DNA of 64,000 bases from Myxococcota bacterium (GTDB lineage Bacteria > Myxococcota > XYA12-FULL-58-9 > JABJBS01), in NCBI GenBank assembly GCA_036339465.1, contig JAYZAY010000073.1, forward strand, positions 1 through 64,000, in the 5' to 3' direction. Shown piece after piece: positions 32,537 through 47,321 of this stretch. The translations under genes were made by a program, and so were the position numbers. The notes under the pieces are model-generated. The model was not told where the DNA came from. It was given only the letters and a program-made list of their open reading frames with translations, and ran no database searches. Every line of letters starts with the position of its first letter. Positions within the stretch are counted from its first letter, which is position 1.

Positions 32537-32992
32537 CTAGAGACGACGGTCAACCAATGCAGCAACACGCTGTCGGTCTTTCATCACAGATTGAAATAAG
32601 TCGGAATCAAGACCCAGCACCCCACCAGACCAAACACGGTCCGGATCTGGATGAATCTCCACCATAACGCCGACCGCTCCTTTGCCCATGGGCCTTACCC
32701 CTTGGGCAACCCCGATACCATGCGAAGCATCCACAAGCGCCGGTAAATGGGGAAGTTCTTTAAACATCACCACTGCATTTAGACCCACTGCATTTAGACC
32801 CACTGCATTTAGACCCACTGCATTTAGACCCACTGCATTTAGACCCACTGCATTTAGACCCACTGCATTCAGGGGCATGGTCTCAAAGGTTCGGATGCCC
32901 CGTGGATCGGAAGTAAATCCAAGCCCTTCAATTCTCTCTTCTACCTGGCCAACTTCCTGGGGAGGCGCCTCTTGTCTCATCCAGACGAACAC
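32537..32992 (-). pseudogene. aroF: Internally deleted class I-beta DAHP synthase remnant (frame still open)
   Basis: N-terminal QVEERIEGLGF joined directly to RGIRTFET...LNAV..FKELPHLPALVDASHG...MVEIHPDP; KPR(S/T) core missing. Confidence 0.75.
32771..32869. repeat. 15-bp tandem repeat CACTGCATTTAGACC x6 plus a 9-bp partial copy
   Basis: Perfect units at 32771, 32786, 32801, 32816, 32831 and 32846; encodes (GLNAV)n on the minus strand. Confidence 0.98.
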
Positions 32993-33156: not shown

Positions 33157-33441
33157 ATGCTAGACCGGCTACTTCGGTTCTACCTTCAACTAAATTATCC
33201 AGTGACAGTCATGGAAAACGATGACTACTTCACCGTTAGCCATCCAGACCTCCCTGGCTGTGAAGTGACAGACCATTCTCTCGCAGAGTGCTACCAACAA
33301 ATCTACGATCTCCGACATTTATGGCTAAAGAAACACCTTGAAGCGGGAGCTCCCGTCCCTACTCCGGGATCCTACAAGAGTGGGTCAATTCATCGTACGA
33401 AGTCCTGGAAGCAAGTCGCGGAAGATAAAGCAAGGTCATAA
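33157..33441 (+). CDS. HicB-like antitoxin-fold protein (short, no DNA-binding domain)
   Basis: YPVTV...FTVSHPDLPGC...LWL...GAPVPTP. Confidence 0.75.
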   Translation: MLDRLLRFYLQLNYPVTVMENDDYFTVSHPDLPGCEVTDHSLAECYQQIYDLRHLWLKKHLEAGAPVPTPGSYKSGSIHRTKSWKQVAEDKARS

Positions 33442-33447
33442 GGCGAC

Positions 33448-35499
33448 ATGTCGGTATCGATTACAAGCGCAATTCTCGCGGCATTTGTCGCCGTAGCGGC
33501 GACCATTGGTATCTTGTTCAACCGTCCCCACAGACGTATTCACCTTCGTTTTGCAGCCGTGACCTTCACCTTATTTGTTTGGCATGCTGGGGGACTCTTG
33601 GGACGATTAACGGGAACGTCGACCCCGGTCATCCAAATGACAGCGGGCTTGGTACTCCCCCCGCTCATGCTGCTCTTCTTCGCCGAACTCGTAGGTCACC
33701 GCGGCATCCAAAAACGTGTCATTTTCGTAACTTGCTTAGCCGCGTTGGTCATCGCCGGAACCATTTTTCTTGAAGTGCAACCCTCCCTTATCTCCGACTA
33801 TCTAATCGGCCCACTCAACCTAATCTGCGCGTTTTTTATCGTCCGAAGCCTACAGCAACACCGCCACCGAGCCAAAAGCCAAACGGAACAATCAAGACTC
33901 TCCTATCTTTATTATGGGGCCATCGTCGTCCTCGCCGTTGAAACACTTGAATGGTTGGCCTCGTCCGAGGGTCTAAGCGCTGTCGGCTATGTACTAGAAA
34001 CGATTTATGTTTACTTCCTCTATCAAAGCATCGTCGCCCAACGTTTTATCAACATGGTGGAAGTCATCAGTAAGGCTGCCGTACTAACGGTGCTTACTTT
34101 ACTTCTCTCAGCCATCTACACCCTGTTGGTGTTATGGATAGGCGTTGAACAACAGGGCCTATGGTTTTTTCACACCATCGTCGCGAGTTTTGTCATTCTC
34201 ATCCTCTACGACCCAGTCCGGCCTTGGATAGAAAAGACGACGGCTCGATTGTGGCTCCGGCATGAATACGACCTGCTTTCCATCGCACAAAACATCGTGC
34301 GAAGCCTCCGGAAAGCAATTCGCGTGGATTCAGTTGCCGACGCCACCCTATCACCGCTTTATAAAAACCTCATTGCGCAGCGTTGCGCAATGTATCTCCG
34401 TGGGGAATCCCCACGGTCATTTCGCCTCCACTCCTACGAGGGAACTCAACCGCCCCAAGAACTCTCCGCCGTCAGTCAACCCGCCTTATTTGGCGACCTT
34501 GAAAGTTACCGCCGCCCACTCTTTCTCGAAGATTTGGAATACCGACAAAACCAGCTCCCTGACGAGCTCACTCAAAATGAATCTTTACGCAATCAAGAAG
34601 CAACCCGTCTGCAGCGCGCCATCAGTGCTTTTTCCGAAATTGGCTTCAACGCAATACTCCCATGTACTTCCGGCAACGAAGTGGTCGCCATTCTGGCATT
34701 GGGCGGAACCAACTATCCCTATCAGTTTTCCAGCAATGAAATGCGGGCACTCCATTCTATCGCTGAAGCCACCGCCATCGCCCTTGAGAATTCAAGGGAA
34801 TTCGAACGGCGGAGAGAGAGGGACCGCCTCGTCGAGATAGGCGAGATGTCCACGGGGCTAGCCCACGAAATCCGCAATCCCTTAGGTGCTATCAAGGGGG
34901 CTGTTCAGTGTATTCACTCAGAAGCCCTACCGAAAAATCAACAAGAGTTCTTTCACGTCATCATCGAAGAAGTCGACCGCCTTAGTGGGGTTGTTACCGC
35001 CTTCCTAAACTATGCACGCCCCTACCACGGAGACCCTCAAACCATCGACCTCAACCAAACCATTCAACAAACACTAAGACTCCTCCAACATGATCAAAGC
35101 CCCCCCGAAGTTCGGCTCACCCAGGATTTACAACCCAAACTACCCTTAGTTCAATTCGACCCCGAACAACTACGCCAAGTTCTCTTGAATCTCATTCGAA
35201 ACGCTTTCGAATCCCTCACACAAGGGGGAGAAGTCACCGTCTCCACTCAAGTCAGGTACCACCCGCCCGAACAAAAACTTGTGGTCATATCCATTAAGGA
35301 TACCGGCTCAGGTATTCCACGAAATATCATTGATAAGATATTCGTACCATTTTATACCACCAAAGCCCACGGCACTGGCTTAGGCTTGCCTATATCTCAG
35401 CGAATTTTAGAACAAGCTGGGGGACGCCTGACTGTTAATTCAGTGGCCGGGATAGGAACGACCTTTGCGATTCATTTACCAGCAATTAAAGAAACCTAG
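33448..35499 (+). CDS. Polytopic membrane sensor histidine kinase with GAF-like domain
   Basis: About 8 N-terminal TM, GLAHEIRNPL, QVLLNLIRNA, DTGSG, FYTTK, GTGLGL. Confidence 0.92.
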   Translation: MSVSITSAILAAFVAVAATIGILFNRPHRRIHLRFAAVTFTLFVWHAGGLLGRLTGTSTPVIQMTAGLVLPPLMLLFFAELVGHRGIQKRVIFVTCLAALVIAGTIFLEVQPSLISDYLIGPLNLICAFFIVRSLQQHRHRAKSQTEQSRLSYLYYGAIVVLAVETLEWLASSEGLSAVGYVLETIYVYFLYQSIVAQRFINMVEVISKAAVLTVLTLLLSAIYTLLVLWIGVEQQGLWFFHTIVASFVILILYDPVRPWIEKTTARLWLRHEYDLLSIAQNIVRSLRKAIRVDSVADATLSPLYKNLIAQRCAMYLRGESPRSFRLHSYEGTQPPQELSAVSQPALFGDLESYRRPLFLEDLEYRQNQLPDELTQNESLRNQEATRLQRAISAFSEIGFNAILPCTSGNEVVAILALGGTNYPYQFSSNEMRALHSIAEATAIALENSREFERRRERDRLVEIGEMSTGLAHEIRNPLGAIKGAVQCIHSEALPKNQQEFFHVIIEEVDRLSGVVTAFLNYARPYHGDPQTIDLNQTIQQTLRLLQHDQSPPEVRLTQDLQPKLPLVQFDPEQLRQVLLNLIRNAFESLTQGGEVTVSTQVRYHPPEQKLVVISIKDTGSGIPRNIIDKIFVPFYTTKAHGTGLGLPISQRILEQAGGRLTVNSVAGIGTTFAIHLPAIKET

Positions 35500-35507
35500 A
35501 GATCATT

Positions 35508-36692
35508 GTGACCCATAAAAAGAAACAACAATTAAACATTTCCTGCATGCTCTTCTTAGCCTCTTTGGGCCTAGGCCTCACCCCCCATCAAGACGATGAC
35601 CTAGACATCATCACCCTAAATGTCGGTCAGGCCGACGCCACCCTATTTCACGCCAACGGCACAACTCTACTGCTCGACACCGGCGCCCCTCTCGAAGAGC
35701 CCGAACGCTTAGGCTATCGTCTCCTCCCGGTTCTAGAAAAACTCACAGGCAAACGACATCTAGATTACGTATTGATTACCCACTTCCACGCCGATCACAT
35801 TGGTAATCCTGGGCGCATACGTTCTAGGAAACCTAAGCAAGCTGGCCTCTTTCAATTGGTCAATCAACTCGGCGTCACCGTAGGAACCGTTTTGGAGCGA
35901 GGTTCCTGGAATCTCAGCACCCCCACCACAACAGAAACCCACTACCGACGACATCTCAAGCACTGGCTGAAAAACGAGCAAGTAGAATCGGTGCGTATCG
36001 TCAATTCAGGAGACTCCATCACCCTCGGTCGGTCCACAAAAATCAGGATCATTTCGTCTTCCGGCAATGGTTATCTCGACAAGTTGGCTCGAGCATTTCC
36101 TGATCTCAAAAACGAATACCCGCCCAGCGAAAATGATTATTCCGTATCGGTGAAAGTCGAGCACGGCGATTTTGAGTTTTTTGCTGGCGGTGATTTAAGT
36201 GGTCAAAATGTCCTAAGGCATTTTGGCCCGGTGGGCATAAGTTACGTAGACATGGAATCTCATATCGCTGATCGAATCGGTGATATCGAAGTCTATAGGG
36301 TGAATCATCATGGCTCGAAAAACAGCTCCAACCCCTGTTTTCTAGAAAAAATCCGGCCCGAGGTCTCCCTGATTTCTTCTGGCAATCATAATCGATACGA
36401 CCATCCGGACGTCAATGTCTTTTTCAGACTTAAAAACTTCGGCGATGTTTTTATTACCGATGGAGCAGGCAAAAGCATGCAAGCATTTCCGCGTTCCCTA
36501 GACCAGGCCGTGGTCGGAGATGATATTTGGATCAAGGTACAAAAAGGCGCCAGCAGCTTTCTTGTAAACGACCGCCCCTATCCCATTAAAAAAGAATCGG
36601 ATGAACTCCAACCTTCAGAGCTACCCTGTCACGACCTTGAGCTTAAGCGATTCACCACCGAAGTCATCACCGATCCTCGACCGCACGATTGA
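35508..36692 (+). CDS. Exported ComEC/Rec2-type metallo-beta-lactamase-fold hydrolase (probable nuclease)
   Basis: NVGQADA, LLDTG, THFHADHIG, ENDYS, GDL, HHGS, ISSG...YDHP; hydrophobic N-terminus; no ComEC membrane domain. Confidence 0.82.
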   Translation: MTHKKKQQLNISCMLFLASLGLGLTPHQDDDLDIITLNVGQADATLFHANGTTLLLDTGAPLEEPERLGYRLLPVLEKLTGKRHLDYVLITHFHADHIGNPGRIRSRKPKQAGLFQLVNQLGVTVGTVLERGSWNLSTPTTTETHYRRHLKHWLKNEQVESVRIVNSGDSITLGRSTKIRIISSSGNGYLDKLARAFPDLKNEYPPSENDYSVSVKVEHGDFEFFAGGDLSGQNVLRHFGPVGISYVDMESHIADRIGDIEVYRVNHHGSKNSSNPCFLEKIRPEVSLISSGNHNRYDHPDVNVFFRLKNFGDVFITDGAGKSMQAFPRSLDQAVVGDDIWIKVQKGASSFLVNDRPYPIKKESDELQPSELPCHDLELKRFTTEVITDPRPHD

Positions 36693-36705
36693 GCTTCAAA
36701 ACGCC

Positions 36706-38973
36706 CTAAAACATCCATTTCCCTACCAGCTTTCCATAATGGCCCGTCTGCTGCCTTGGAGTTTCGCTTTCGTGTAGATGATACAAACCATATTTAACGT
36801 CCACGGCCCAGTTATCACCAATCTTCTGACTCAAACCGAGATAACCTGAAAAAGCGGGGACCTCTGCCAATCCATCATCTGCCGTGGTTAGCCTATCGGT
36901 CCCTAAATGCAAACGTGCGCGTATGGATAGTCTGGCGCCCTCCCATCCCTTCATCGATGACCTCAAGACCAAGAATTGGGAGAAACTATAACTCTCTGAG
37001 TTATTCTTAACATCCTGTAAAACCGCTCGATAATATGCACCCATAGACACCCCCGGTAACCGCTTGCTCCCCAGTCCTACCCCTAAGGTGTGCTTCTCTC
37101 CTCCGCCAAGATCGCAGCCGTTGTCGGACTCCAAATCAGAGGCTTCAAGGGTAAATGAGTCACAACTGCCGTAGCTTTGTTCACGCCCCCTTTTAGACAA
37201 GTCGTTATCCGAAAACCTATATTTGACGTTGGCCGTCTCCTTACGCGTCAGTTCCAGCGTAGCACCCTGGGACAATCTCAAGTTCCAGGCATCGTTACGC
37301 ACCCAACTGATGTTCCCACTCCACCCAACGAGAGGCCGCCACGGTAGGGTAAAAAGCTCCAATTGGGTCGATAATTTAATGCGTTGCACCAATGAAAGAT
37401 GACTCTCCAGCTTAATACCCAATTCATTGCGCCTACGGGAGCCTAGCGTTTCTGCCGCCGCCGCTTCGCTCCCACCAAATGGATTGTCAAAATCACGACC
37501 ATACCAACGAAAGGACATGGTCGTATCCCAATTATCCAACCAATAAGCGATGACACGAGAAAAAATCGCCTCGTTACCGCCATCGTCAAAAGCGAGTGCA
37601 CTACTCAGCTCAAAATCACCCACGGCCCAATGGACGCGTAAACCTGCACTGCCAAAAACGCTTCGTCTCGGTAGCTTAGAAGACAGAGCAAACCTCGCCG
37701 CACCGGGACTTCCCACCAAAAAACCCGTCTGTCCTCGGTAAATGGTGGCATCAACTCGAAAGTCATCATAATAGGAATAGCGAACATTCGCCCCAGTCAG
37801 AAAAAGGCTGTAGACATCACGTAGTGTAAGCCAAGAGTGCGTTTTACCACTCACCTCTGAATCCACAACCTTGGTACTACGACATACTCCTTCCACACCA
37901 CAGGTGTAACCAAATGGACAGTCGCTGTTGCCAAAACACGCCCTGTAAGCAGATGCATCTTCGCAGGATGCCAAGTTGTCATCACAGCCGGCCGCAAATT
38001 CATCAACGCCGTATTCCATATCATATTGATAGAGGTCTTTATGGTCATAGGAAGCGAATAGGGTCGTATCCATAAGCCCCCCTAAGGCGGACATTCCATT
38101 AAACGTCGCAGCCACACCTAATAACCCCGCATCGGGATTACGAAGTCGGCCATTGACAAAATCAACGGTTTGGGGCCTTGGGCGGTAAAATCCAACCGGA
38201 AACGCCTTGGGGGTCGTGTCGAAAACAAGTCGGTCTCCAAAACCAGCTTCAAAAGACCCTAAAATAAAACTCCCGCGATTCCAGCGATATTCTGCATACG
38301 CCTGCCCAAAATCAAACTTGTTTTTTAATCCATCGGAAGCGAGGAGGGCTGAACTCCAGTCCCACCAGGCATCAGCGACTGGCCGAACGTTAAAAAGCGT
38401 ACCCACATTGATATTTTCTTCATAACGAATGTCCACCCCTAAGAAAGAACCCGGTGGATATTGCAAAGACCGAACAGTGGTTCCCGCAGGAACTTTGTCT
38501 AAAAAGGCCCCTCCGACCATTCCCGTCTTGACCTCTCCGTGTAACTCAAAATCAACGGTGCGACCCACAAACTCGTCGGATTGCCCCAACATAACGAAAG
38601 GCCGCAACTGTAAAATAGCGCCATGGGGCAAAACAGGCACCCTCGTTTCTAGCTCCTCTAAGCTTTTAAACACGCCTCCCCTTGAGCGTTCAGCGACAAT
38701 CTCTTGGGCCAAACCAAAGCCAAGTCCGGGTAAATCATAAAGCAAGAGCGCATCAGCCCGATTCAGAGGAATCGGCCGTTGGCACATGCGAAGTAAATTT
38801 TGGTAGGCGTCCTCCTCTAGATCCCCACCATTGAGACACTCATCTAGATCATCACAGTCTTGAACGAGCAAATAGACGCCGTAATCTCGGGCCCAAGCCC
38901 GCTCGCTTTGAAGCCCCAGGAGAACGACGCAGATCATCCATGTCGAGAAGACTTTCAACCGACCCATCGCCAT
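36706..38973 (-). CDS. Exported ComEA-type helix-hairpin-helix protein with probable outer-membrane beta-barrel
   Basis: Signal peptide ending AWA; PIPLNRAD...LPGLGFGLAQEIVAER..GG.FKSLEEL; amphipathic beta-strands; C-terminus GKLVGKWMF. Confidence 0.75.
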   Translation of the reverse strand: MAMGRLKVFSTWMICVVLLGLQSERAWARDYGVYLLVQDCDDLDECLNGGDLEEDAYQNLLRMCQRPIPLNRADALLLYDLPGLGFGLAQEIVAERSRGGVFKSLEELETRVPVLPHGAILQLRPFVMLGQSDEFVGRTVDFELHGEVKTGMVGGAFLDKVPAGTTVRSLQYPPGSFLGVDIRYEENINVGTLFNVRPVADAWWDWSSALLASDGLKNKFDFGQAYAEYRWNRGSFILGSFEAGFGDRLVFDTTPKAFPVGFYRPRPQTVDFVNGRLRNPDAGLLGVAATFNGMSALGGLMDTTLFASYDHKDLYQYDMEYGVDEFAAGCDDNLASCEDASAYRACFGNSDCPFGYTCGVEGVCRSTKVVDSEVSGKTHSWLTLRDVYSLFLTGANVRYSYYDDFRVDATIYRGQTGFLVGSPGAARFALSSKLPRRSVFGSAGLRVHWAVGDFELSSALAFDDGGNEAIFSRVIAYWLDNWDTTMSFRWYGRDFDNPFGGSEAAAAETLGSRRRNELGIKLESHLSLVQRIKLSTQLELFTLPWRPLVGWSGNISWVRNDAWNLRLSQGATLELTRKETANVKYRFSDNDLSKRGREQSYGSCDSFTLEASDLESDNGCDLGGGEKHTLGVGLGSKRLPGVSMGAYYRAVLQDVKNNSESYSFSQFLVLRSSMKGWEGARLSIRARLHLGTDRLTTADDGLAEVPAFSGYLGLSQKIGDNWAVDVKYGLYHLHESETPRQQTGHYGKLVGKWMF

Positions 38974-38988
38974 CCACCTTTCTTATTA

Positions 38989-41286
38989 TTAACAAGATAC
39001 TGGATTAGATTCCCCTGGGCTTGCCATCCCCAAACACCAACTGCCATCCGAGGCTCGGTAGAGCGTCGAACCGCTCCGAGGCATCAGTACTGGCGTCGAA
39101 AAGAGCGTTGTACCATCTTGGCCACGGATCTCAATCTCGAGATCACTATTGAACATATTGAGGCCATCAACAATCACATCTACAGCCACCTCCGACTCAC
39201 TTCCGCCTGCCACCAAGAATTCTCCGGCCCCCAAAGGATAACATTGGTCTAAACCAATGAGTTCTTCACGAGGTGGGCTCTCGCCCTTTTTAGCCACCAA
39301 AAGAATGCCACCCACGTCCACTTCCACCGAACCGGCATTATAAAATTCGACCCACTCTTTCTTACTATCGGTAGAATCTGGATTTGCCATTAACTCCGAA
39401 ACAATCAACGCACCCTCCAAAGCCACCCGCGCCGCCTGAGGGCTCTGACCATCCACAAGACAACCAGCACCACAGACATTGGCAAAACCCGGGCTACCTC
39501 GGCCATCAAACACACCTGTGAGTTGAGACTGGCAATAAGCGTCCGCCGTATCATTTCCGGTAGCGCTTAGGTTCGCGGGATTAAGAGCATAGGAATAGCC
39601 CGATTGGGCTGCCAACACGTGAGATTCATCGATAACGAGGTCTCCCTGGGTCAATGTCAACTTGAGGGCGTTCGTATTGTAGAGTGCGAGTGAATCCACA
39701 ACCATCCCAATATTCTTCAGATTACCGTTCAACGTCGTATCTGCCTCTGGCGCCATCAAGAAATAACTTCCGGCGTCGGCCACAATACAGTCCTTTCCTA
39801 AAAGACTAAATTTTCGACTGTTTCCGGAGCCATCATCATTTTGAGCCACTGCGACTTCGAGCCCATTTAAATAGCGGGATTCATCGGCCGCCACATAGAG
39901 TTCCAAGAAATCCTTACCACCGGTTTTGGGATAAGCGTAAACCTCTGAGACGATCACATCACCGGCAACAAGCTCAACGATTTCGGCATAGCCACCATCC
40001 ACCACACAACTCTTCGAACCACAGATACCGTTCATAAACCCTGGAGTCGGCACCACGGGCTCATCGGAAACCTGAAACCCATCCCCTGAGAGACATCCGT
40101 CACCGGCCGCAGTCTTGGGTGTGGTACTCAAAGCATCACGCATCCACGACATTCCATCCGCCACGTCCGACTCGAAAACCACACTGGACAAGACCGCCCC
40201 ATCCAAAGAAATTCGGACCTGAGTTCCCGCACCATTGGGCACACTAAGTCCCTCAAATCCCACAACCGCGCCCCCTTCCACCACCGGAGAACTGCCCTGC
40301 GCCGCATAAAAGACCCCATAGGCCCCCGGTGCCAAACTGAAGCATTTTGCTCGTTCTAGCAATCCAGTAAAACCCTTGGCCCCACTGGCACGAATCACCT
40401 CTACGAGTAGGCCGTTCAAGTCGACACTCTTCTGGGAATGATTCTGGATCTCTATCCATTCAAAACCCTGGTCGCTGCCGCCCGGGTTGGCAAAAACCTC
40501 GGTAATCAACAGATCACCTTCAACGGGAAAAACAGTATCGCGGGATACTCCACCATCATCACATTTTAAAAAACCGCATAGGGGATTGTTCTCGCCTGGT
40601 GTCGTGGGCCTTGCAGCCCCCTCTTCACTCGAGGTTTCACACCAATACTCTCGAGAATCGTTTCGTCGGCTGTCCGGTGTAAAGCTACCGTCCAAAGCCA
40701 AAGAATTCCCGGTTTTCGGGGCGGGTAAATTTTCCTCACCACCGTAAATGATGGAATCGATCAACGTGGTGCCGCAGCGTAAGCCAATCCCCCCACTCTC
40801 TTGTCCCAAGGTTCCAAAGCTCTCGCCGAATCGATCGGAACTATCAACTGAATCCGTACCATCGTGTTCAAACCGTAAATCATAGGAATAGTGTAAGAAA
40901 TCCAACGAACCAGCATTCCCGAACACACGATGGGACTTTGCTGGGATAAACATGCCTCGCCTCACAGAGTGATAGGCTTGGCGGGTTATCCCCCCATCGC
41001 CACTCACCCCGTAACGCTCAAGGAGCATCCGATTAATCTCTTGTCCTTCATCCGAAGCGTTATAAACCTCAAACCATTCCCCATCGAAATCCGTACCAGC
41101 GGGATCAACAAAAAACTCCGTAATAACCAATTGCCCAGATTGAGCCGAGCATACTCTATCTTCGTTATTCTCGACCTGACAGGCCTGTAAAATGAGTATG
41201 CCCAAAGAAAACACAACCTTGCGAAGTAATGGAGCAGACAACAAGGTTTGTAGGAAAGAGCGAGACCCTGAGCGTAGACATACCAT
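38989..41286 (-). CDS. Lipoprotein with four lamin-tail-domain (LTD)-like repeats
   Basis: Lipobox-like LQAC; repeats LVITEFFVDP..EWFEVYN, LLITEVFANP..EWIEIQN, VIVSEVYAYP..DFLELY, LIVSELMANP..EWVEFYN, each closing with C..(T/S)PG..N. Confidence 0.8.
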   Translation of the reverse strand: MVCLRSGSRSFLQTLLSAPLLRKVVFSLGILILQACQVENNEDRVCSAQSGQLVITEFFVDPAGTDFDGEWFEVYNASDEGQEINRMLLERYGVSGDGGITRQAYHSVRRGMFIPAKSHRVFGNAGSLDFLHYSYDLRFEHDGTDSVDSSDRFGESFGTLGQESGGIGLRCGTTLIDSIIYGGEENLPAPKTGNSLALDGSFTPDSRRNDSREYWCETSSEEGAARPTTPGENNPLCGFLKCDDGGVSRDTVFPVEGDLLITEVFANPGGSDQGFEWIEIQNHSQKSVDLNGLLVEVIRASGAKGFTGLLERAKCFSLAPGAYGVFYAAQGSSPVVEGGAVVGFEGLSVPNGAGTQVRISLDGAVLSSVVFESDVADGMSWMRDALSTTPKTAAGDGCLSGDGFQVSDEPVVPTPGFMNGICGSKSCVVDGGYAEIVELVAGDVIVSEVYAYPKTGGKDFLELYVAADESRYLNGLEVAVAQNDDGSGNSRKFSLLGKDCIVADAGSYFLMAPEADTTLNGNLKNIGMVVDSLALYNTNALKLTLTQGDLVIDESHVLAAQSGYSYALNPANLSATGNDTADAYCQSQLTGVFDGRGSPGFANVCGAGCLVDGQSPQAARVALEGALIVSELMANPDSTDSKKEWVEFYNAGSVEVDVGGILLVAKKGESPPREELIGLDQCYPLGAGEFLVAGGSESEVAVDVIVDGLNMFNSDLEIEIRGQDGTTLFSTPVLMPRSGSTLYRASDGSWCLGMASPGESNPVSC

Positions 41287-41367
41287 TGTTCGACATATCC
41301 TTGTGGCAATATAATTCGGGCAGCAGGCCTAACTTATTTATCCACTTAGGGTGCCGGGTCAATAAGT

Positions 41368-41841
41368 CTATTTCATTTTAGAAGCACAATCGGGATCAAA
41401 ACACTCACCATATAGCTCCATTTTGTGACTTGTCACATGAAAACCATAGCGAGCTGCCACCTCCTCCTGTAGGGCCTCGATTCTATCATCGACGAACTCG
41501 ACAATTTTTCCGCACCTTGTGCAAATCAAATGGTCGTGGTGGGCATCCCCTGCATCACTGGGCTCGTATCGGGTGTAGCCATCCTCAAAATGACGGGCCT
41601 CGGCCAACCCGCAATCCAGCAAGAACTTCATGGTACGATAAACCGTGGCCTGACTGATTTTGGGGTCTTTTTCACGCGCTCGCTGCATAATATCCTCAAC
41701 GCGCATGTGTTCTTGTGAGCTGAAAAAAACCTCGGAGATCACCTCGCGCTGCCGCGAATTTTTCATGCCTAGTTCCTGGATATGGAAACGTAGCTGCTCT
41801 AATTTTTCTTTGAGAATCGTGGACACCTTAACCTCACTCAA
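41368..41841 (-). CDS. fur: Fur family transcriptional regulator
   Basis: SRQREVI, ISQATVYRT, HHDHLICTRCGKIVEF, HKMELYGEC. Confidence 0.93.
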   Translation of the reverse strand: MSEVKVSTILKEKLEQLRFHIQELGMKNSRQREVISEVFFSSQEHMRVEDIMQRAREKDPKISQATVYRTMKFLLDCGLAEARHFEDGYTRYEPSDAGDAHHDHLICTRCGKIVEFVDDRIEALQEEVAARYGFHVTSHKMELYGECFDPDCASKMK

Positions 41842-41901
41842 TACTAGTTAGCCCATCAAAATGCCTGGGTCAACATATCCTAAGCACCTAACTCACAAAG
41901 C

Positions 41902-42834
41902 TTATGAGGCTTCCAATTCCAAAACCGCCACTCCTTGAGCACACTGCAAAAAAAGCTCATGACCAAAAATAACACAGTCCCCTGGTATGGAATCACCGGA
42001 TTCATCCACTCGCAATCCCCGCTTCACGAAAAAAAGTTCGTCCTCCACTTCCACATAGACCCGCAGAAAAAACCTCGCCCCCGAGGCAAATCGCACCACA
42101 TGTTCAGCATCCCACTCCTTTTGCCGAATTCTTCCAAAACTGGCATCGGGTCGACCCGCCCGCGGGGTCTGACTGCCATCCTCAAGTTGCGGACACCCCT
42201 CTGGCAAACCATGGACCGCAGCCTTTTTCAATAATTCTAAAAGCGCCGGTGCCGCCCGACGCCCCGCCGCGTGAAATATCTCCGCTCCGGAATCGGTTTG
42301 GGATACGGCAAAGGGTTGCGTAGACAGAACAGGACCATGATCTTCTCTAGTATCCATATGATGAATCGAGACAAACCAGTCTCGAATACCCCAGTGCAGC
42401 TGCCAAAGGATCGGCGATGGCCCTCTCCACTCGGGTAATTTCGATGGATGAATATTCAAGGCCCCCTCCTTAAACGCCTCCAACACACCTATTGGAAAAA
42501 GCCTTGAAAAACCTGCACATACGAGAATATCCCCCTGGAGCTTCTCAATTTCTATTTTGGTTAACTCAGACCCAATATCCGAAATCTCCAAAACAGGGAT
42601 CCCCGCTCCAAGGGCGAGGTCTGTGGTGGTCGGTTGATTTTGGGAAAACCAAGTCTTGAAGTGGCTTCGCACCCCAGCCCGGCGCCATCGAAAATGGGGT
42701 TCGTTGTTTCCTCCCCGTCGTCCTAAAAGACAAGTCGTCACCTGAAAATGTTCGTCTTGGGCCCTTAAGAGATAGTCCAATACCGGGGGCGCAAAAGGAC
42801 CGTTTTGCCCTGCAAAAACAACCGATAGCGTCAT
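41902..42834 (-). CDS. Formyltransferase family protein (N10-formyl-THF dependent)
   Basis: LNIHPSKLPEWRGPSP and HHMDTREDHGP motifs; substrate unknown. Confidence 0.8.
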   Translation of the reverse strand: MTLSVVFAGQNGPFAPPVLDYLLRAQDEHFQVTTCLLGRRGGNNEPHFRWRRAGVRSHFKTWFSQNQPTTTDLALGAGIPVLEISDIGSELTKIEIEKLQGDILVCAGFSRLFPIGVLEAFKEGALNIHPSKLPEWRGPSPILWQLHWGIRDWFVSIHHMDTREDHGPVLSTQPFAVSQTDSGAEIFHAAGRRAAPALLELLKKAAVHGLPEGCPQLEDGSQTPRAGRPDASFGRIRQKEWDAEHVVRFASGARFFLRVYVEVEDELFFVKRGLRVDESGDSIPGDCVIFGHELFLQCAQGVAVLELEAS

Positions 42835-42849
42835 CTAACGTCGATACGC

Positions 42850-44346
42850 CTAGAACCGGAATTGTGCAACTAAGCGCATTTCTCTTTCAGTTTTGCCCGC
42901 CTCGCTCCCGAGAAGTTGATCCCCATAGTAATGCTCCGAAAACATCGCCGAAACCAACCCGATATTGGACCAAAAATAGTAATGAAGCGCCACTCTGGCC
43001 TGAAGCTCATTCCGAATCTTCTTCAGTTCGTGTTCCGCCTCTGAATCCGGATTCTGCTCAAACTCGGAAGCCAAGAATCCACCCACATCAAATCCAAGCA
43101 TCAAACGCTTGGGCCAAAGTAGGATTCCAAACTCCGCCCGCGATGCCGATTGCCAGGCGCCCCAATTCAACTCGCGTTTGGTATAGTTCTCAGCTTCGAA
43201 GACCAGTCTTTTCCAGCGAAAAACCACCGCAGTATTGATGGCGGGATATCGCTCCCCTGCTCGCTGATCATATTTCACACCAAACCTGAGGGAAAGGCTG
43301 GTTGAAGTGGGCTGAAGTATGAAGGGTGTGTCCCAGCGGCTGTAGTAACCAATCACATTATAAACAAGCTGGGCACCCGCTGAATACGTGTAGTTGCGAT
43401 TGTCATAACGGTAGTAGCGACCGCCAATATTCCCAGTAGACCGACCGCTACCACCGGCGACAAAAACGCGATAATTGAGCACGCCACCGTCCACACCAGG
43501 AACCGGACCCTCCATATCCACAGCGGCACCGTTGCCCTGCTCAAAAGCTGAAGCAATGTAGTACGCAGGATCCAAAAGTAGCTGCTTGGCCGACGATTTA
43601 ACCAACGATGCAGACAAACCGCCACCACCACTGTTAATATTGATTCGGTGTCCTCCCCCCACGGGTACCTGGAACATCGCAAAGGTCAGACGGGGGGTTT
43701 TTTCGGCTCGAAGACTTACCAGATAGAAAGAATCTTGAATCAAGGGAATGGGGCCAAAGGAGCGAAGTTGCAACTTCGTAACCCGAGTATCTGTTTTTTG
43801 CTCCACAAAATCATATTCCTGAGCCAAATTTCCGACAATTGAAAACTTCATGCCAGGAGAACCACGACAAATCGCAACCTCGGGAGAATTCGCACAACCC
43901 GGATCAGCACAATCCACCAAACCATCAAAATCGTTGTCGATACCATCGGAACATAGGAGGTCATTGCGCTCACCATCATTATCCTGAGCCGGCGCGGATT
44001 GAATAGACGCATCCGCCTTCACGGGTGCACCTCCGTCCCAGGAACCCTTACAAACTTTGATGGTCGGCCCCTGACATAAAAAGTCGTCACAGTCCGTGTA
44101 GCCATTGCCATCATTGTCGATCCAATCGCTACAACGAAGATCCGTATTCTCGGCTTCACCGTCAGGCTTACATGCCTCGGTCTTCATACAATCCGCATCA
44201 GCGCAATCAACCATGCCATCGGCATCATCGTCGCTACGATCACTACAATTGGTTTCCGGTGCAGCGTGCGCAAAGCTCACCCCAAAAAACGGCGTTGCAC
44301 CCAGTAAAAACAAAAAGTTCCACGCTAAAACTAAACGTCTATTCAT
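42850..44346 (-). CDS. Exported protein: three Cys/Asp-rich repeats + probable outer-membrane beta-barrel
   Basis: Signal peptide ending AHA; CSD..D(N/D)D.(D/N)G..DC.D..C x3; beta-rich C-terminal domain ending RLVAQFRF. Confidence 0.72.
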   Translation of the reverse strand: MNRRLVLAWNFLFLLGATPFFGVSFAHAAPETNCSDRSDDDADGMVDCADADCMKTEACKPDGEAENTDLRCSDWIDNDGNGYTDCDDFLCQGPTIKVCKGSWDGGAPVKADASIQSAPAQDNDGERNDLLCSDGIDNDFDGLVDCADPGCANSPEVAICRGSPGMKFSIVGNLAQEYDFVEQKTDTRVTKLQLRSFGPIPLIQDSFYLVSLRAEKTPRLTFAMFQVPVGGGHRININSGGGGLSASLVKSSAKQLLLDPAYYIASAFEQGNGAAVDMEGPVPGVDGGVLNYRVFVAGGSGRSTGNIGGRYYRYDNRNYTYSAGAQLVYNVIGYYSRWDTPFILQPTSTSLSLRFGVKYDQRAGERYPAINTAVVFRWKRLVFEAENYTKRELNWGAWQSASRAEFGILLWPKRLMLGFDVGGFLASEFEQNPDSEAEHELKKIRNELQARVALHYYFWSNIGLVSAMFSEHYYGDQLLGSEAGKTEREMRLVAQFRF

Positions 44347-44369
44347 TTCCTATTCTCCAACCGGACAAA

Positions 44370-45554
44370 TTATTCGAAACATACTTTGATTTCATCATTA
44401 CAAACTGTGACCAAGGGATTCCATCGACAATCCCAATCCTCACAATCCACATAGGTATCACCATCATTATCTAAACCGTCACTACAAAATCGATTTACCT
44501 TCATTAGCGCATCCGCATCCTGCTTGCTCAAATCGAGGTTGCCATTGGCATCGTAGAGCCCTGACCGAGCATCAGGGAGATAGGCGCTCTCACGGCATAC
44601 CTGCTTCACTTCGACACTATCGGCCCTTGAGCAGGAGAAATCACCACAATCGATATAGCCGTTACCATCATTATCAATACCATCGCTGCACCTCTCCACC
44701 GTATTTTCTAAGATCGATGCACAATAGTCCACGACCGCTTGAATCCCCGACTTCGTACAACTGTAGTCTGCGCAATCCACATAACCATTGCCGTCATTAT
44801 CGATACCATCCTGGCATTTATCTAAGGTGTCTTCTTCTTTCTCTTCGCAAAAACTCGCCACTGCCTGATCCGGCGACTTCGAGCATGAGAAATCGGCACA
44901 ATCCACATAGCCATTCCCATCATTATCGATCCCATCCTGACACTTGGGCAGGGTGTCCTCGGGCTCACTCGCAGCCGAAGTCGTTCCTGCGGAGTCAGAA
45001 ACACAAAAAGACGCACAGCCCGTGTCTTTACAATCGATATTTCCATCGCCGTCGTCATCTTCACCGTTGCTACAAAGCTGTGCCGTATTCTCCACACACA
45101 CCGTCACAAAGAGTCCCATTCGACAGCTAAAATCCTCACAGTCCACATAACCATTGCCATCATTATCGAAGCCATCGGCACACATGGCATCACTAAATTC
45201 CGTTGCACAACAATGCTCGGGGATTGTATTGCAATCCGAATCACCACAATCAAACTGGCCATCGTTGTCATTGTCGATAAAATCCCAGCACTCATCACCC
45301 TCTTCTTTGGCTGAATCCTGAGGTTCTGGGGGTAAATACTCACCACACAGAGTTGAAAGCTCCAAACAATCACTGTCTTCACAATCAATACGGTTGTCAC
45401 CATCATTGTCCATGCCATCAGAACAGGCATCGTCGTTGGTCTCATAGCCATAAACAGGCTGCGAAGGACGGACATATTCACATGCAGGCAGACTAACGAT
45501 TAAAAGAGAGATCCCAAAAACAGAACTTATTAAACCTAGAACAGTTTTTTTCAC
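44370..45554 (-). CDS. Lipoprotein with eight Cys/Asp-rich (CxDGxDNDGxGxxDCxDxxC) repeats
   Basis: GTG at 45554 after AGGAG; lipobox-like LPAC; eight repeats counted in the translation. Confidence 0.82.
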   Translation of the reverse strand: MKKTVLGLISSVFGISLLIVSLPACEYVRPSQPVYGYETNDDACSDGMDNDGDNRIDCEDSDCLELSTLCGEYLPPEPQDSAKEEGDECWDFIDNDNDGQFDCGDSDCNTIPEHCCATEFSDAMCADGFDNDGNGYVDCEDFSCRMGLFVTVCVENTAQLCSNGEDDDGDGNIDCKDTGCASFCVSDSAGTTSAASEPEDTLPKCQDGIDNDGNGYVDCADFSCSKSPDQAVASFCEEKEEDTLDKCQDGIDNDGNGYVDCADYSCTKSGIQAVVDYCASILENTVERCSDGIDNDGNGYIDCGDFSCSRADSVEVKQVCRESAYLPDARSGLYDANGNLDLSKQDADALMKVNRFCSDGLDNDGDTYVDCEDWDCRWNPLVTVCNDEIKVCFE

Positions 45555-45565
45555 GTCGATTACTC

Positions 45566-46543
45566 CTAACGCAGACACACAGCTCGGTTGCCACCATATC
45601 GCCGCTTAAAGGGCACGTAGGTCATACAGCTATCGATTGTTCTCGTGGCCGCCACAAGTTTGCCATCCGCTTCTAATTTACGCAGATGCACTTCAACGCG
45701 CTTACGGTCTTTATGGGGTATAAAAGCAGCGACATTGTGTAACTTTAGCCAAATCGTCAAAAGATATTCCAATCGCACATCGTCATGGGGGGCGATGAGA
45801 TCTCGAATGTCGTCGTTCTGCTTTAATTCTGCGATGCAGGTCGTGATCACTGCGGGGGCCACAGTCACCTTATCCACACAGACCTCCTCACATTCTCGGT
45901 AAAGCTTTTGGTGCCTCAATTTCTCAGAGTGCCCGTCGGCAGAAGAAACCACTCGATTGTAAGCGAATTTTCTGCCCCCCTCATCGATAGAATGGAGAGA
46001 GGTTAAAACAAACTCGGGAACCCCGTGGGCCCACATTCCCCGGCGTTCACGCTGCGCCTTTGCTTGCACCTCTATGAGCTCTGGTGCTGCCCCTTCAGCC
46101 GTGACCGTCATAGCATGGGCTAAGCCCTTGGCCACTTGGTCCTTCCTTAGACTGGGACAATCAAAGAGGGTCCGCCCATAGATATCTTTTTCACCTTCGG
46201 ATTGACACGCCCAGGAGCCTCGCTCAGCATTTCTCGTCGCCATCTTTGCGTTGATATAAAGTTCCTTCGCCGTCCATTTTCCCCATCGATGAACAGGACC
46301 ATGACTTTCGAGGGTATTGAAACCCGCCAAACGTCCCTTCGTACCCGTATATTTCCCTTCGAGAACCCGAAAACTATCACCATCGTTGAAATAAACCGGT
46401 GAAGGTGTTCCGTTCACCTTCACCATAGCCCTCGCTCCCGCCATGGCCAATGAACCAAGACAAAAAGCAACCAGCCAGAACACAACGGACGTCTGGTTTA
46501 AGTATCTCGGACACTTAAATCCCTTTAAATGTAATATTCTCAT
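45566..46543 (-). CDS. Exported thermonuclease (SNase) family protein with C-terminal extension
   Basis: DGDSF, RLAGFNTLE, DIYGR, GLAH, AQRERRGMW; start uncertain (ATG 46543 used). Confidence 0.8.
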   Translation of the reverse strand: MRILHLKGFKCPRYLNQTSVVFWLVAFCLGSLAMAGARAMVKVNGTPSPVYFNDGDSFRVLEGKYTGTKGRLAGFNTLESHGPVHRWGKWTAKELYINAKMATRNAERGSWACQSEGEKDIYGRTLFDCPSLRKDQVAKGLAHAMTVTAEGAAPELIEVQAKAQRERRGMWAHGVPEFVLTSLHSIDEGGRKFAYNRVVSSADGHSEKLRHQKLYRECEEVCVDKVTVAPAVITTCIAELKQNDDIRDLIAPHDDVRLEYLLTIWLKLHNVAAFIPHKDRKRVEVHLRKLEADGKLVAATRTIDSCMTYVPFKRRYGGNRAVCLR

Positions 46544-46754
46544 AACTCGGATTCCTTTGTTGGGCCGGTGAGAAAAGTTCCATCGCAGGCAGCAGCGGGC
46601 CAGGTGCATCTCATGGTTGGAGACAAGAGTCTAGGTCGAAGTATAATCTTTTTTCTTTTGTGCCTAAGAGCTTGACCTTCGCAAAGAAACGGTTGACTTG
46701 TTAGATTTTGAGGATGAACACTTGGCTCTCGAACTCGGAGGAGCGTAACAACCA

Positions 46755-47321
46755 ATGATTCGACTCATCTTGATATTCGCTCTTCCATGGGGGGCTCTAT
46801 CCGCCTGCATCGTTGATGACGGCAGTCTAAACAGCGACTTCAAAACCCACGATACCCCCATTGACCGCCAAGAGCTCAGCTCCACCGAGGTGTTTTCTTA
46901 CCCTGCTACGGTTCGTTCAGTGATCGATGGTGACACCATTGAGGTCCTGTATGAAAATGAAAAGCTTCGCATTCGTCTGAAAGGCATAGATACTCCTGAA
47001 TTAACCAAATGTTCCCCTTGTCCCGAACGATTCGCCCAAAACGCGAAACAAATTGTCTGGAATGCCATCGGTAATTCTGTCGTGGGCCTCGAATTCGACA
47101 GCCAATGTGCTTCAATGCCCTTGGATACATGTCGCGACATGTATGATCGGGTGCTAAGCTATGTACGACTTCCTGGAAACATCGACCTCGGCGAGGAGCT
47201 CATTGTTCGTGGACTCGCCCGAGTCTACCGATACAACAACGAAATCTTCGACCGCCTAAGCCCCTATGTCATTGCCCAAGACACCGCCAAAATCAATCAA
47301 CAGGGTATTTGGAGCCCCTAA
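46755..47321 (+). CDS. Thermonuclease (SNase) family lipoprotein
   Basis: Lipobox LSAC; VIDGDT, RLKGIDTPE, DMYDRVLSYV, GLARVY, GIWS. Confidence 0.9.
   Translation: MIRLILIFALPWGALSACIVDDGSLNSDFKTHDTPIDRQELSSTEVFSYPATVRSVIDGDTIEVLYENEKLRIRLKGIDTPELTKCSPCPERFAQNAKQIVWNAIGNSVVGLEFDSQCASMPLDTCRDMYDRVLSYVRLPGNIDLGEELIVRGLARVYRYNNEIFDRLSPYVIAQDTAKINQQGIWSP

Follow-up and report, generated by a model that had tools for sequence, protein, structure and literature searches.

The window analysed here, a 64,000-nucleotide stretch of contig JAYZAY010000073.1 from a Myxococcota bacterium, contains nine adjoining genes for two SNase-family proteins, two predicted outer membrane (OM) barrels, two repeat lipoproteins, a metallo-beta-lactamase (MBL) hydrolase, a Fur-family regulator and a formyltransferase. 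The question raised by this locus is whether the nine genes form one system for the capture of extracellular DNA, as a first, sequence-only reading had proposed. Their distribution indicates that they very probably represent two separately conserved modules of the Myxococcota plus passenger genes, lying side by side only in the family of the window. Module A comprises barrel A, which carries an N-terminal helix-hairpin-helix (HhH) domain, and a lipoprotein with four lamin-tail domains (LTD), with the MBL hydrolase as accessory. Module B comprises barrel B, a Cys lipoprotein composed of acidic repeats and the nuclease SNase1, with SNase2 as accessory.

Distribution of the nine genes across Myxococcota

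Of 41 related genomes, 24 gave a match to barrel A, some of them to its HhH domain only. The loci of 20 of the 23 genomes other than that of the window were examined with neighbour profiles that started from the window proteins and were built from the loci themselves. Close to barrel A, an LTD gene was present in 19 of the 20 loci, an SNase gene in 17, the MBL gene in seven and the fur and formyltransferase genes in one; the Cys proteins and SNase1 were found in none. A phylum-wide pattern scan of GTDB yielded 227 loci, of which 80 were kept; these include Nannocystaceae, Kofleriaceae, Polyangiales, Myxococcaceae and others, and a few repeat loci already counted. Barrel A was accompanied by LTD in 65, by SNase in 59 and by MBL in four of the 80, whereas the Cys lipoprotein, SNase1, Fur and formyltransferase were near it in none, and barrel B was represented by one weak match (3e-4). 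Where barrel A was flanked by 3 kb or more on each side (44 loci), LTD or an LTD-like gene is present in 41 cases and a gene for SNase or phospholipase D (PLD) in 39. Barrel A, LTD and SNase occurred together, in varying gene order, in all of 15 further barrel A genomes chosen for completeness and spread; in one of these loci the SNase lies within a frame labelled as a kinase. Chaperone or pilin genes were not noticed near barrel A, the recurring neighbours being LTD and nuclease genes.

The nuclease of module A is replaced in some lineages. In a screen of 37 neighbouring open reading frames (ORFs) from loci without SNase or LTD, mostly drawn from 109 candidates, five SNase-less loci (L067, L071, L073, L078 and L115) were found to carry a single-HKD gene of the PLD/Nuc type directly upstream of barrel A; on the downstream side they have LTD or an LTD-like gene. 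We take the motif of this PLD partner to resemble that of Salmonella Nuc. In module A, every partner SNase whose domain was captured in full has intact catalytic motifs, and a canonical ComEA with several HhH motifs is encoded immediately upstream of barrel A in one further locus. Longer versions of the module with two LTD and two SNase genes, one SNase being short and the other about 390 amino acids long with an uncharacterised C-terminal part, occur in L085, L089, L100, L112 and many other loci. The LTD-barrel A pair was also seen in two small assemblies titled Gammaproteobacteria (L070, L114), by transfer or mis-binning; the labels of several loci titled Enterobacterales or Rickettsiales were not trusted, their GC content being about 70% and the two genomes checked measuring 9-10 Mb.

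Close orthologues of the MBL gene were found in 12 of the 41 related genomes, all of the same order, and in seven of the ten relatives with both genes it lies tail-to-tail with barrel A. By this pattern, the MBL protein is probably an order-restricted accessory of module A. It scores as ComEC_Rec2-like below the cut-off and, in the window, consists of the MBL domain only, with no Competence membrane domain or OB fold. Its origin as a split-off piece of ComEC was rejected because contig C11 of the host genome encodes a complete ComEC that includes an MBL domain.

The neighbourhood of module B was followed in 22 loci, from 21 other genomes and the same-family genome G004. The Cys lipoprotein gene adjoins that of barrel B in every one, SNase1 belongs to the operon in 19, and SNase2 is present in six, divergent in five of them. 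Module A genes were found at none of the 22 loci, the same-family contigs being short. In one locus (L205, genome G359) the barrel B gene stands in two tandem copies. The interpretation of SNase2 as a displaced nuclease of module A was rejected because it travels with module B; in a quick tree with long branches, which is weak evidence, it also falls outside the SNase group of module A.

Across 355 genomes of the phylum, an 11-sequence profile with three candidates scored per genome placed barrel A in 168, nearly always as a single match. Barrel B occurs in 22 of the 355, and both modules occur together in three, all of the window's family, a count made among kin genomes that are not independent. 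A 149-sequence profile of barrel A gave only matches to HhH domains, plus one weak and unrelated-looking match, in G004 and the other 19 genomes with module B; the ten readable top matches are stand-alone HhH proteins, and no convincing barrel A was found in the 19 genomes. The expected co-occurrence of homologues thus holds within module A and within module B, and fails across all nine genes.

Within the family, G004 retains fur, the formyltransferase gene (fmt) and module B in the window's order, about 8 kb of other genes separate module B from fmt-fur-LTD in G002, and in G005 the place of module B is taken by a different gene. The intervening genes of G002 (contig C76, L174), as read from their translations, include cyanophycin-type genes. 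Since these arrangements differ and the modules have separate distributions, the nine-gene run is best explained as local synteny. Fur and formyltransferase are linked to the modules only in these three genomes and are family-level passengers. The proposal of a single nine-gene system is therefore replaced by that of two modules with nearly exclusive distributions.

Predicted structures of the barrels and their partners

An AlphaFold 2 model of barrel A from an alignment of 149 sequences reached a predicted local distance difference test score (pLDDT) of 89.7 and a predicted template modelling score (pTM) of 0.88; a single-sequence model (pLDDT 30) was set aside. The model consists of a helical N-terminal domain, presumably periplasmic from the general topology of such barrels, followed by 24 long and mostly clearly amphipathic strands, and 110 of the 149 alignment rows end in Phe. 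The polar face averages about +8 and contains conserved Arg positions; the acidic segment preceding the HhH domain has a median charge of -10. The HhH protein had been taken for a barrel before, and the model bears this out. Its top Foldseek match is the usher FimD (TM about 0.35), and VIA-align superposed the whole barrel on the ushers FimD and PapC with Z 14-15 and 8-10% identity, while partial matches to smaller porins score as high. Ushers have 24 strands and hence the same barrel size, and they are the best full-length structural match, but no usher Pfam family was matched in 24 barrel A family members scanned. Similarity to TonB-dependent transporters is low (TM about 0.3), and neither barrel A nor barrel B matched a TonB-dependent-receptor family in Pfam or NCBIfam. 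The model thus predicts a new large barrel that appears to have no close solved relative. A full HMMER scan recovered 655 representative homologues at E<=1e-30; word-index searches found few homologues. Structural relatives in Bacteroidota are known from ESM Atlas models only, and plasmid records gave no match to barrel A.

The HhH domain of barrel A scores above the PF12836 cut-off, has the two-HhH fold of ComEA and superposes on the ComEA structure 8DSS with Z 11.5 and a root-mean-square deviation of 1.2; here the fold is fused to an OM barrel. In ComEA of G. stearothermophilus, loss of K166 (B. subtilis K164), a conserved lysine after hairpin 1, abolishes DNA binding (PMC9747964). This residue was mapped to position 86 of the barrel A model via the 80-residue offset between the structural-match ranges. 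Among barrel A family members, Lys occupies the position in 0 of 145 and Arg in 3 of 145, and 5 of 146 keep the second Gly of hairpin 1; the stand-alone ComEA of the host genome keeps both hairpins. Because neither the essential lysine nor the Gly is conserved, the capture of DNA by the tethered HhH domain, an element of the sequence-only reading, appears doubtful.

The C-terminal part of barrel B resembles ESM Atlas models of the Porin_O_P family, with TM scores of 0.55-0.58 normalised by the query and 0.72-0.84 by the target, in agreement with the earlier suggestion that this Cys/Asp protein is a barrel. Many basic residues are conserved in it. Compared with OprO and OprP (PF07396), whose fold is predicted to be alike, barrel B adds N-terminal acidic repeats and a nuclease operon and misses the family cut-off.

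The catalytic positions of SNase were taken as D21, R35, D40, E43 and R87 (thermonuclease numbering). In SNase1 the equivalents of D21, R35, E43 and R87 are invariant in an alignment of 20 sequences, and in SNase2 an alignment to thermonuclease shows all five. PF00565 has three matches in the host genome, namely SNase1, SNase2 and a gene on contig C43. Elsewhere in this genome lie genes for a shorter paralogue of SNase1 (C28:5744-6274) and for another protein with acidic repeats (C6:3768-4475), and other genomes also carry SNase1 paralogues without module B.

The acidic repeats of the Cys lipoprotein (eight copies) and barrel B (three copies) affiliate to NF033662 with 230.6 and 93.1 bits against a cut-off of 41, and their profile matches the teneurin C-rich domain 7PLP (E 5.8e-7), which binds three Ca2+ ions (PMC9058538). 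By this homology, the repeats of the Cys lipoprotein likely bind Ca2+, as had been supposed before. Both module B proteins share this type of repeat with the teneurin domain; in them, the repeats are arrayed in tandem, in a porin and a lipoprotein of a bacterium.

Proposed nucleic-acid harvesting and competing explanations

Gene anatomy and function call for separate degrees of confidence. As to function, we moderately favour two analogous OM modules that would harvest extracellular nucleic acid, brought together by a family-specific juxtaposition with the fur and formyltransferase genes caught between them. The exported or lipid-anchored, Ca2+-dependent nuclease of each module would cut DNA or RNA of the environment or of prey. 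The repeat lipoprotein, through LTDs in module A and putative Ca2+-binding acidic repeats in module B, would scaffold the reaction at the pore, the partners possibly forming physical complexes at the cell surface. The beta-barrel would then admit the products to the periplasm, longer fragments in the case of the 24-stranded barrel A and nucleotides or short oligomers in that of the OprO/OprP-like barrel B. Module A of the window, having apparently lost its own nuclease gene, would depend on the nucleases of module B or on the MBL hydrolase. Nutrition, i.e. the supply of phosphorus, nitrogen and nucleotides, seems the likeliest use. The strongest functional clue to harvesting is the constant presence of a nuclease gene next to barrel A despite a change of nuclease fold; the second, unrelated barrel B likewise keeps its own nuclease. 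Replacement of SNase by PLD, together with a near-exclusive second module, is a pattern typical of a real functional unit. A link to extracellular nucleic acid had also been drawn by the sequence-only reading and is supported here; the nuclease motifs are intact.

Several observations weigh against harvesting. Module A of the window has no SNase within the operon, its LTD and barrel A genes being 15 bp apart, and among the 44 well-flanked loci three are without LTD and five without an SNase or PLD nuclease. SNase1 has Asn in place of the Ca2+ ligand D40 in 20 of 20 sequences. Barrel A is closest in structure to ushers, which export proteins, and its HhH domain has the substitutions described above. 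The porin-family assignment of barrel B is based on Atlas models; PF07396 was matched by just one of 63 family members (E 0.012), and a profile search of solved-structure sequences with barrel B retrieved no porin. Finally, the exclusive distribution of the modules spans few independent lineages.

Of the competing explanations, one that is unlikely but deserves attention casts barrel A as a translocon that displays the LTD and nuclease lipoproteins at the surface, or as their anchor, rather than as an importer, with a structural, protein-binding HhH domain; DNA would then be degraded outside the cell, be it for biofilm remodelling, clearing of prey DNA or defence. The resemblance to the 24-stranded ushers, the degenerate HhH domain behind its very acidic segment and an LTD partner more constant than the nuclease all speak for such a role. 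The low usher identity and the equal scores of smaller porins are at odds with it, however, as are the conserved Arg residues and net positive polar face, which suit an anionic substrate, and the canonical ComEA beside barrel A in one locus. We consider it improbable that module A is a pilus-independent entry for transforming DNA, in which the nuclease would trim the DNA, the wide barrel pass it and ComEA and ComEC encoded elsewhere complete its uptake. Twenty-four strands would form a wide pore, the HhH domain superposes closely on ComEA, the genome has ComEC, ComEA and DprA, and homologues of the ddb genes serve transformation in Riemerella (PMC8459023, PMC12478041). Yet the essential lysine of ComEA is missing from the HhH domain, PilT and a secretin make the classical route available, and, with one or two sugar-non-specific nucleases at the pore, the DNA would be cut to pieces.

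The absence of competence genes from the cluster had been read in favour of feeding. With ComEC, ComEA, DprA, PilT and one secretin encoded elsewhere in the host genome, this absence cannot separate feeding from transformation. A single co-evolving, possibly Fur-regulated system of all nine genes for DNA capture is very improbable. The tight gaps of the seven-gene run, the shared order of fur, fmt and module B in G004, and a module A that may depend on module B for a nuclease would fit it, but the neighbourhood counts around barrel A (none of 20 loci; none of 80 except the weak barrel B match) and the different arrangements in G005 and G002 do not, so that it is already contradicted outside the window's family.

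The proposed harvesting of nucleic acid by two modules can be compared with described systems. The ddbABCDEF locus of Bacteroidales (PMC12478041) and the Riemerella genes (PMC8459023) share with the modules secreted or lipid-anchored nucleases beside an OM barrel and a partner lipoprotein, and mutually exclusive variants across genomes have been reported for ddb loci as well (PMC12478041, PMC8459023). In ddb, the transporter DdbC is TonB-dependent and DdbD belongs to DUF5689 (PMC12478041), and neither family was detected in the window proteins. In contrast to ddb, the modules have an usher-sized 24-strand barrel or an OprO/OprP-like porin, LTD or acidic-repeat partners and SNase or PLD nucleases. 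Nuclease genes with intact motifs lie in conserved linkage beside the barrel, as in ddb, but neither barrel is a TonB-dependent transporter; the modules would hence work like ddb loci without belonging to them by homology. The combination of SNase or MBL with LTD is known from haloarchaeal lipoproteins of the MBL-LTD type and from Hvo_1477 of Haloferax volcanii; the latter, a lipoprotein that joins SNase to an LTD, is required for growth when DNA is the phosphorus source (PMC3929857, PMC5118699). There the domains are fused and no OM exists, whereas in the window each has its own gene, linked to that of a barrel. Transformation requires HhH proteins in Riemerella (RA0C_RS02645; PMC8459023) and in Porphyromonas (PGN_0421; PMC11532111). 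A literature search of non-subscription papers, covering mostly titles and the beginnings of abstracts, found no description of module A or B, in line with the earlier statement that no characterised system of this composition is known; the modules are real, conserved and apparently unstudied, and two rather than one.

The modules bear on the use of DNA from lysed prey and from their biofilms by myxobacteria. Tentatively, the modules may be two non-homologous, TonB- and pilus-independent OM machines for nucleic-acid import that replace each other across myxococcotal lineages, one of them built on a previously unknown 24-strand barrel that would be wide enough to pass fragments of DNA and that has structural relatives in Bacteroidota as well. 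If so, they would explain the uptake of prey DNA by predatory myxobacteria and possibly constitute a new transformation route. In the best-sampled family, 132 of 171 genomes contain barrel A, nearly always with one match per genome, and many of these genomes are complete, with sizes of 9-13 Mb. Lacking a close solved relative, the 24-strand barrel is also a structural target in itself.

Layout and surroundings of the locus

ORF analysis of the window recovered the nine genes with the positions and strands described before (Table 1), including the seven-gene run on the minus strand, the divergent SNase2 gene and the convergent MBL gene. From barrel A to SNase1 the gaps of the run are 15, 81, 60, 15, 23 and 11 bp, the last presupposing the second GTG of the Cys lipoprotein as start, since the first GTG would give a 13-bp overlap. 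The MBL and barrel A genes lie tail-to-tail with a gap of 13 bp. Pfam and NCBIfam matches (two SNase, four LTD, HHH_3, FUR, Formyl_trans_N, Lactamase_B and NF033662) agree with the earlier domain calls. A simple heuristic based on hydrophobicity and lipobox motifs assigned export-type N-termini to seven of the nine products, the same number as previously counted; SNase2 and both repeat lipoproteins have a lipobox, and the MBL protein has none. Counts from a promoter and terminator scan of the stretch were close to chance (17 against 13.6 and 19 against 14.1).

Table 1 Genes of the two modules and their passengers in the window
Gene product	Assignment	Position	Strand	Features
MBL hydrolase	module A, accessory	35508..36692	+	ComEC-type metallo-beta-lactamase fold, stand-alone, predicted exported; HxHxDH intact
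Barrel A	module A, core	36706..38973	-	signal peptide, acidic N-terminal segment, degenerate ComEA-fold HhH, predicted 24-strand OM beta-barrel, C-terminal Phe; HHH_3 and AlphaFold 2
LTD lipoprotein	module A, core	38989..41286	-	lipobox LQAC36; four lamin-tail domains, PF00932 x4
Fur-family regulator	passenger between modules	41368..41841	-	PF01475
Formyltransferase	passenger	41902..42834	-	predicted cytoplasmic; Fmt/ArnA-like, scores below cut-offs
Barrel B	module B, core	42850..44346	-	signal peptide, NF033662 x3, predicted OprO/OprP-like porin barrel, C-terminal Phe
Cys lipoprotein	module B, core	44370..45578	-	LPAC lipobox; eight acidic double-disulfide repeats (NF033662 x8), teneurin C-rich-like
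SNase1	module B, core	45566..46609	-	predicted exported SNase-family nuclease, PF00565
SNase2	module B, accessory	46755..47321	+	SNase lipoprotein, LSAC18; catalytic residues complete

The host assembly comprises 4.2 Mb and is 93% complete, and the taxa to which its homologues belong place it in Myxococcota. Near-identical DNA is contained in marine and seawater metagenomes, and no RNA data set was listed among the holders, which has no bearing on expression; in four seawater or marine runs, contigs cover the window in short pieces only, with no joints and no indels. Upstream of the MBL gene, a small HicB-like gene and a gene for a membrane GAF histidine kinase (33157-35499, plus strand) form a pair that is placed tail-to-tail with module A in several members of the order, both where the MBL gene intervenes and where it does not; the pair could be a regulator or reflect old synteny. 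A remnant of a DAHP synthase gene with a large deletion (32537-32992, minus strand) is 41% identical to the C-terminal part of the intact gene at the same place in a relative. It carries a perfect 15-bp tandem repeat of 6.7 copies at 32770-32869 and represents either decay or an assembly artefact; a longer DAHP synthase paralogue is encoded on contig C74 of the host genome.

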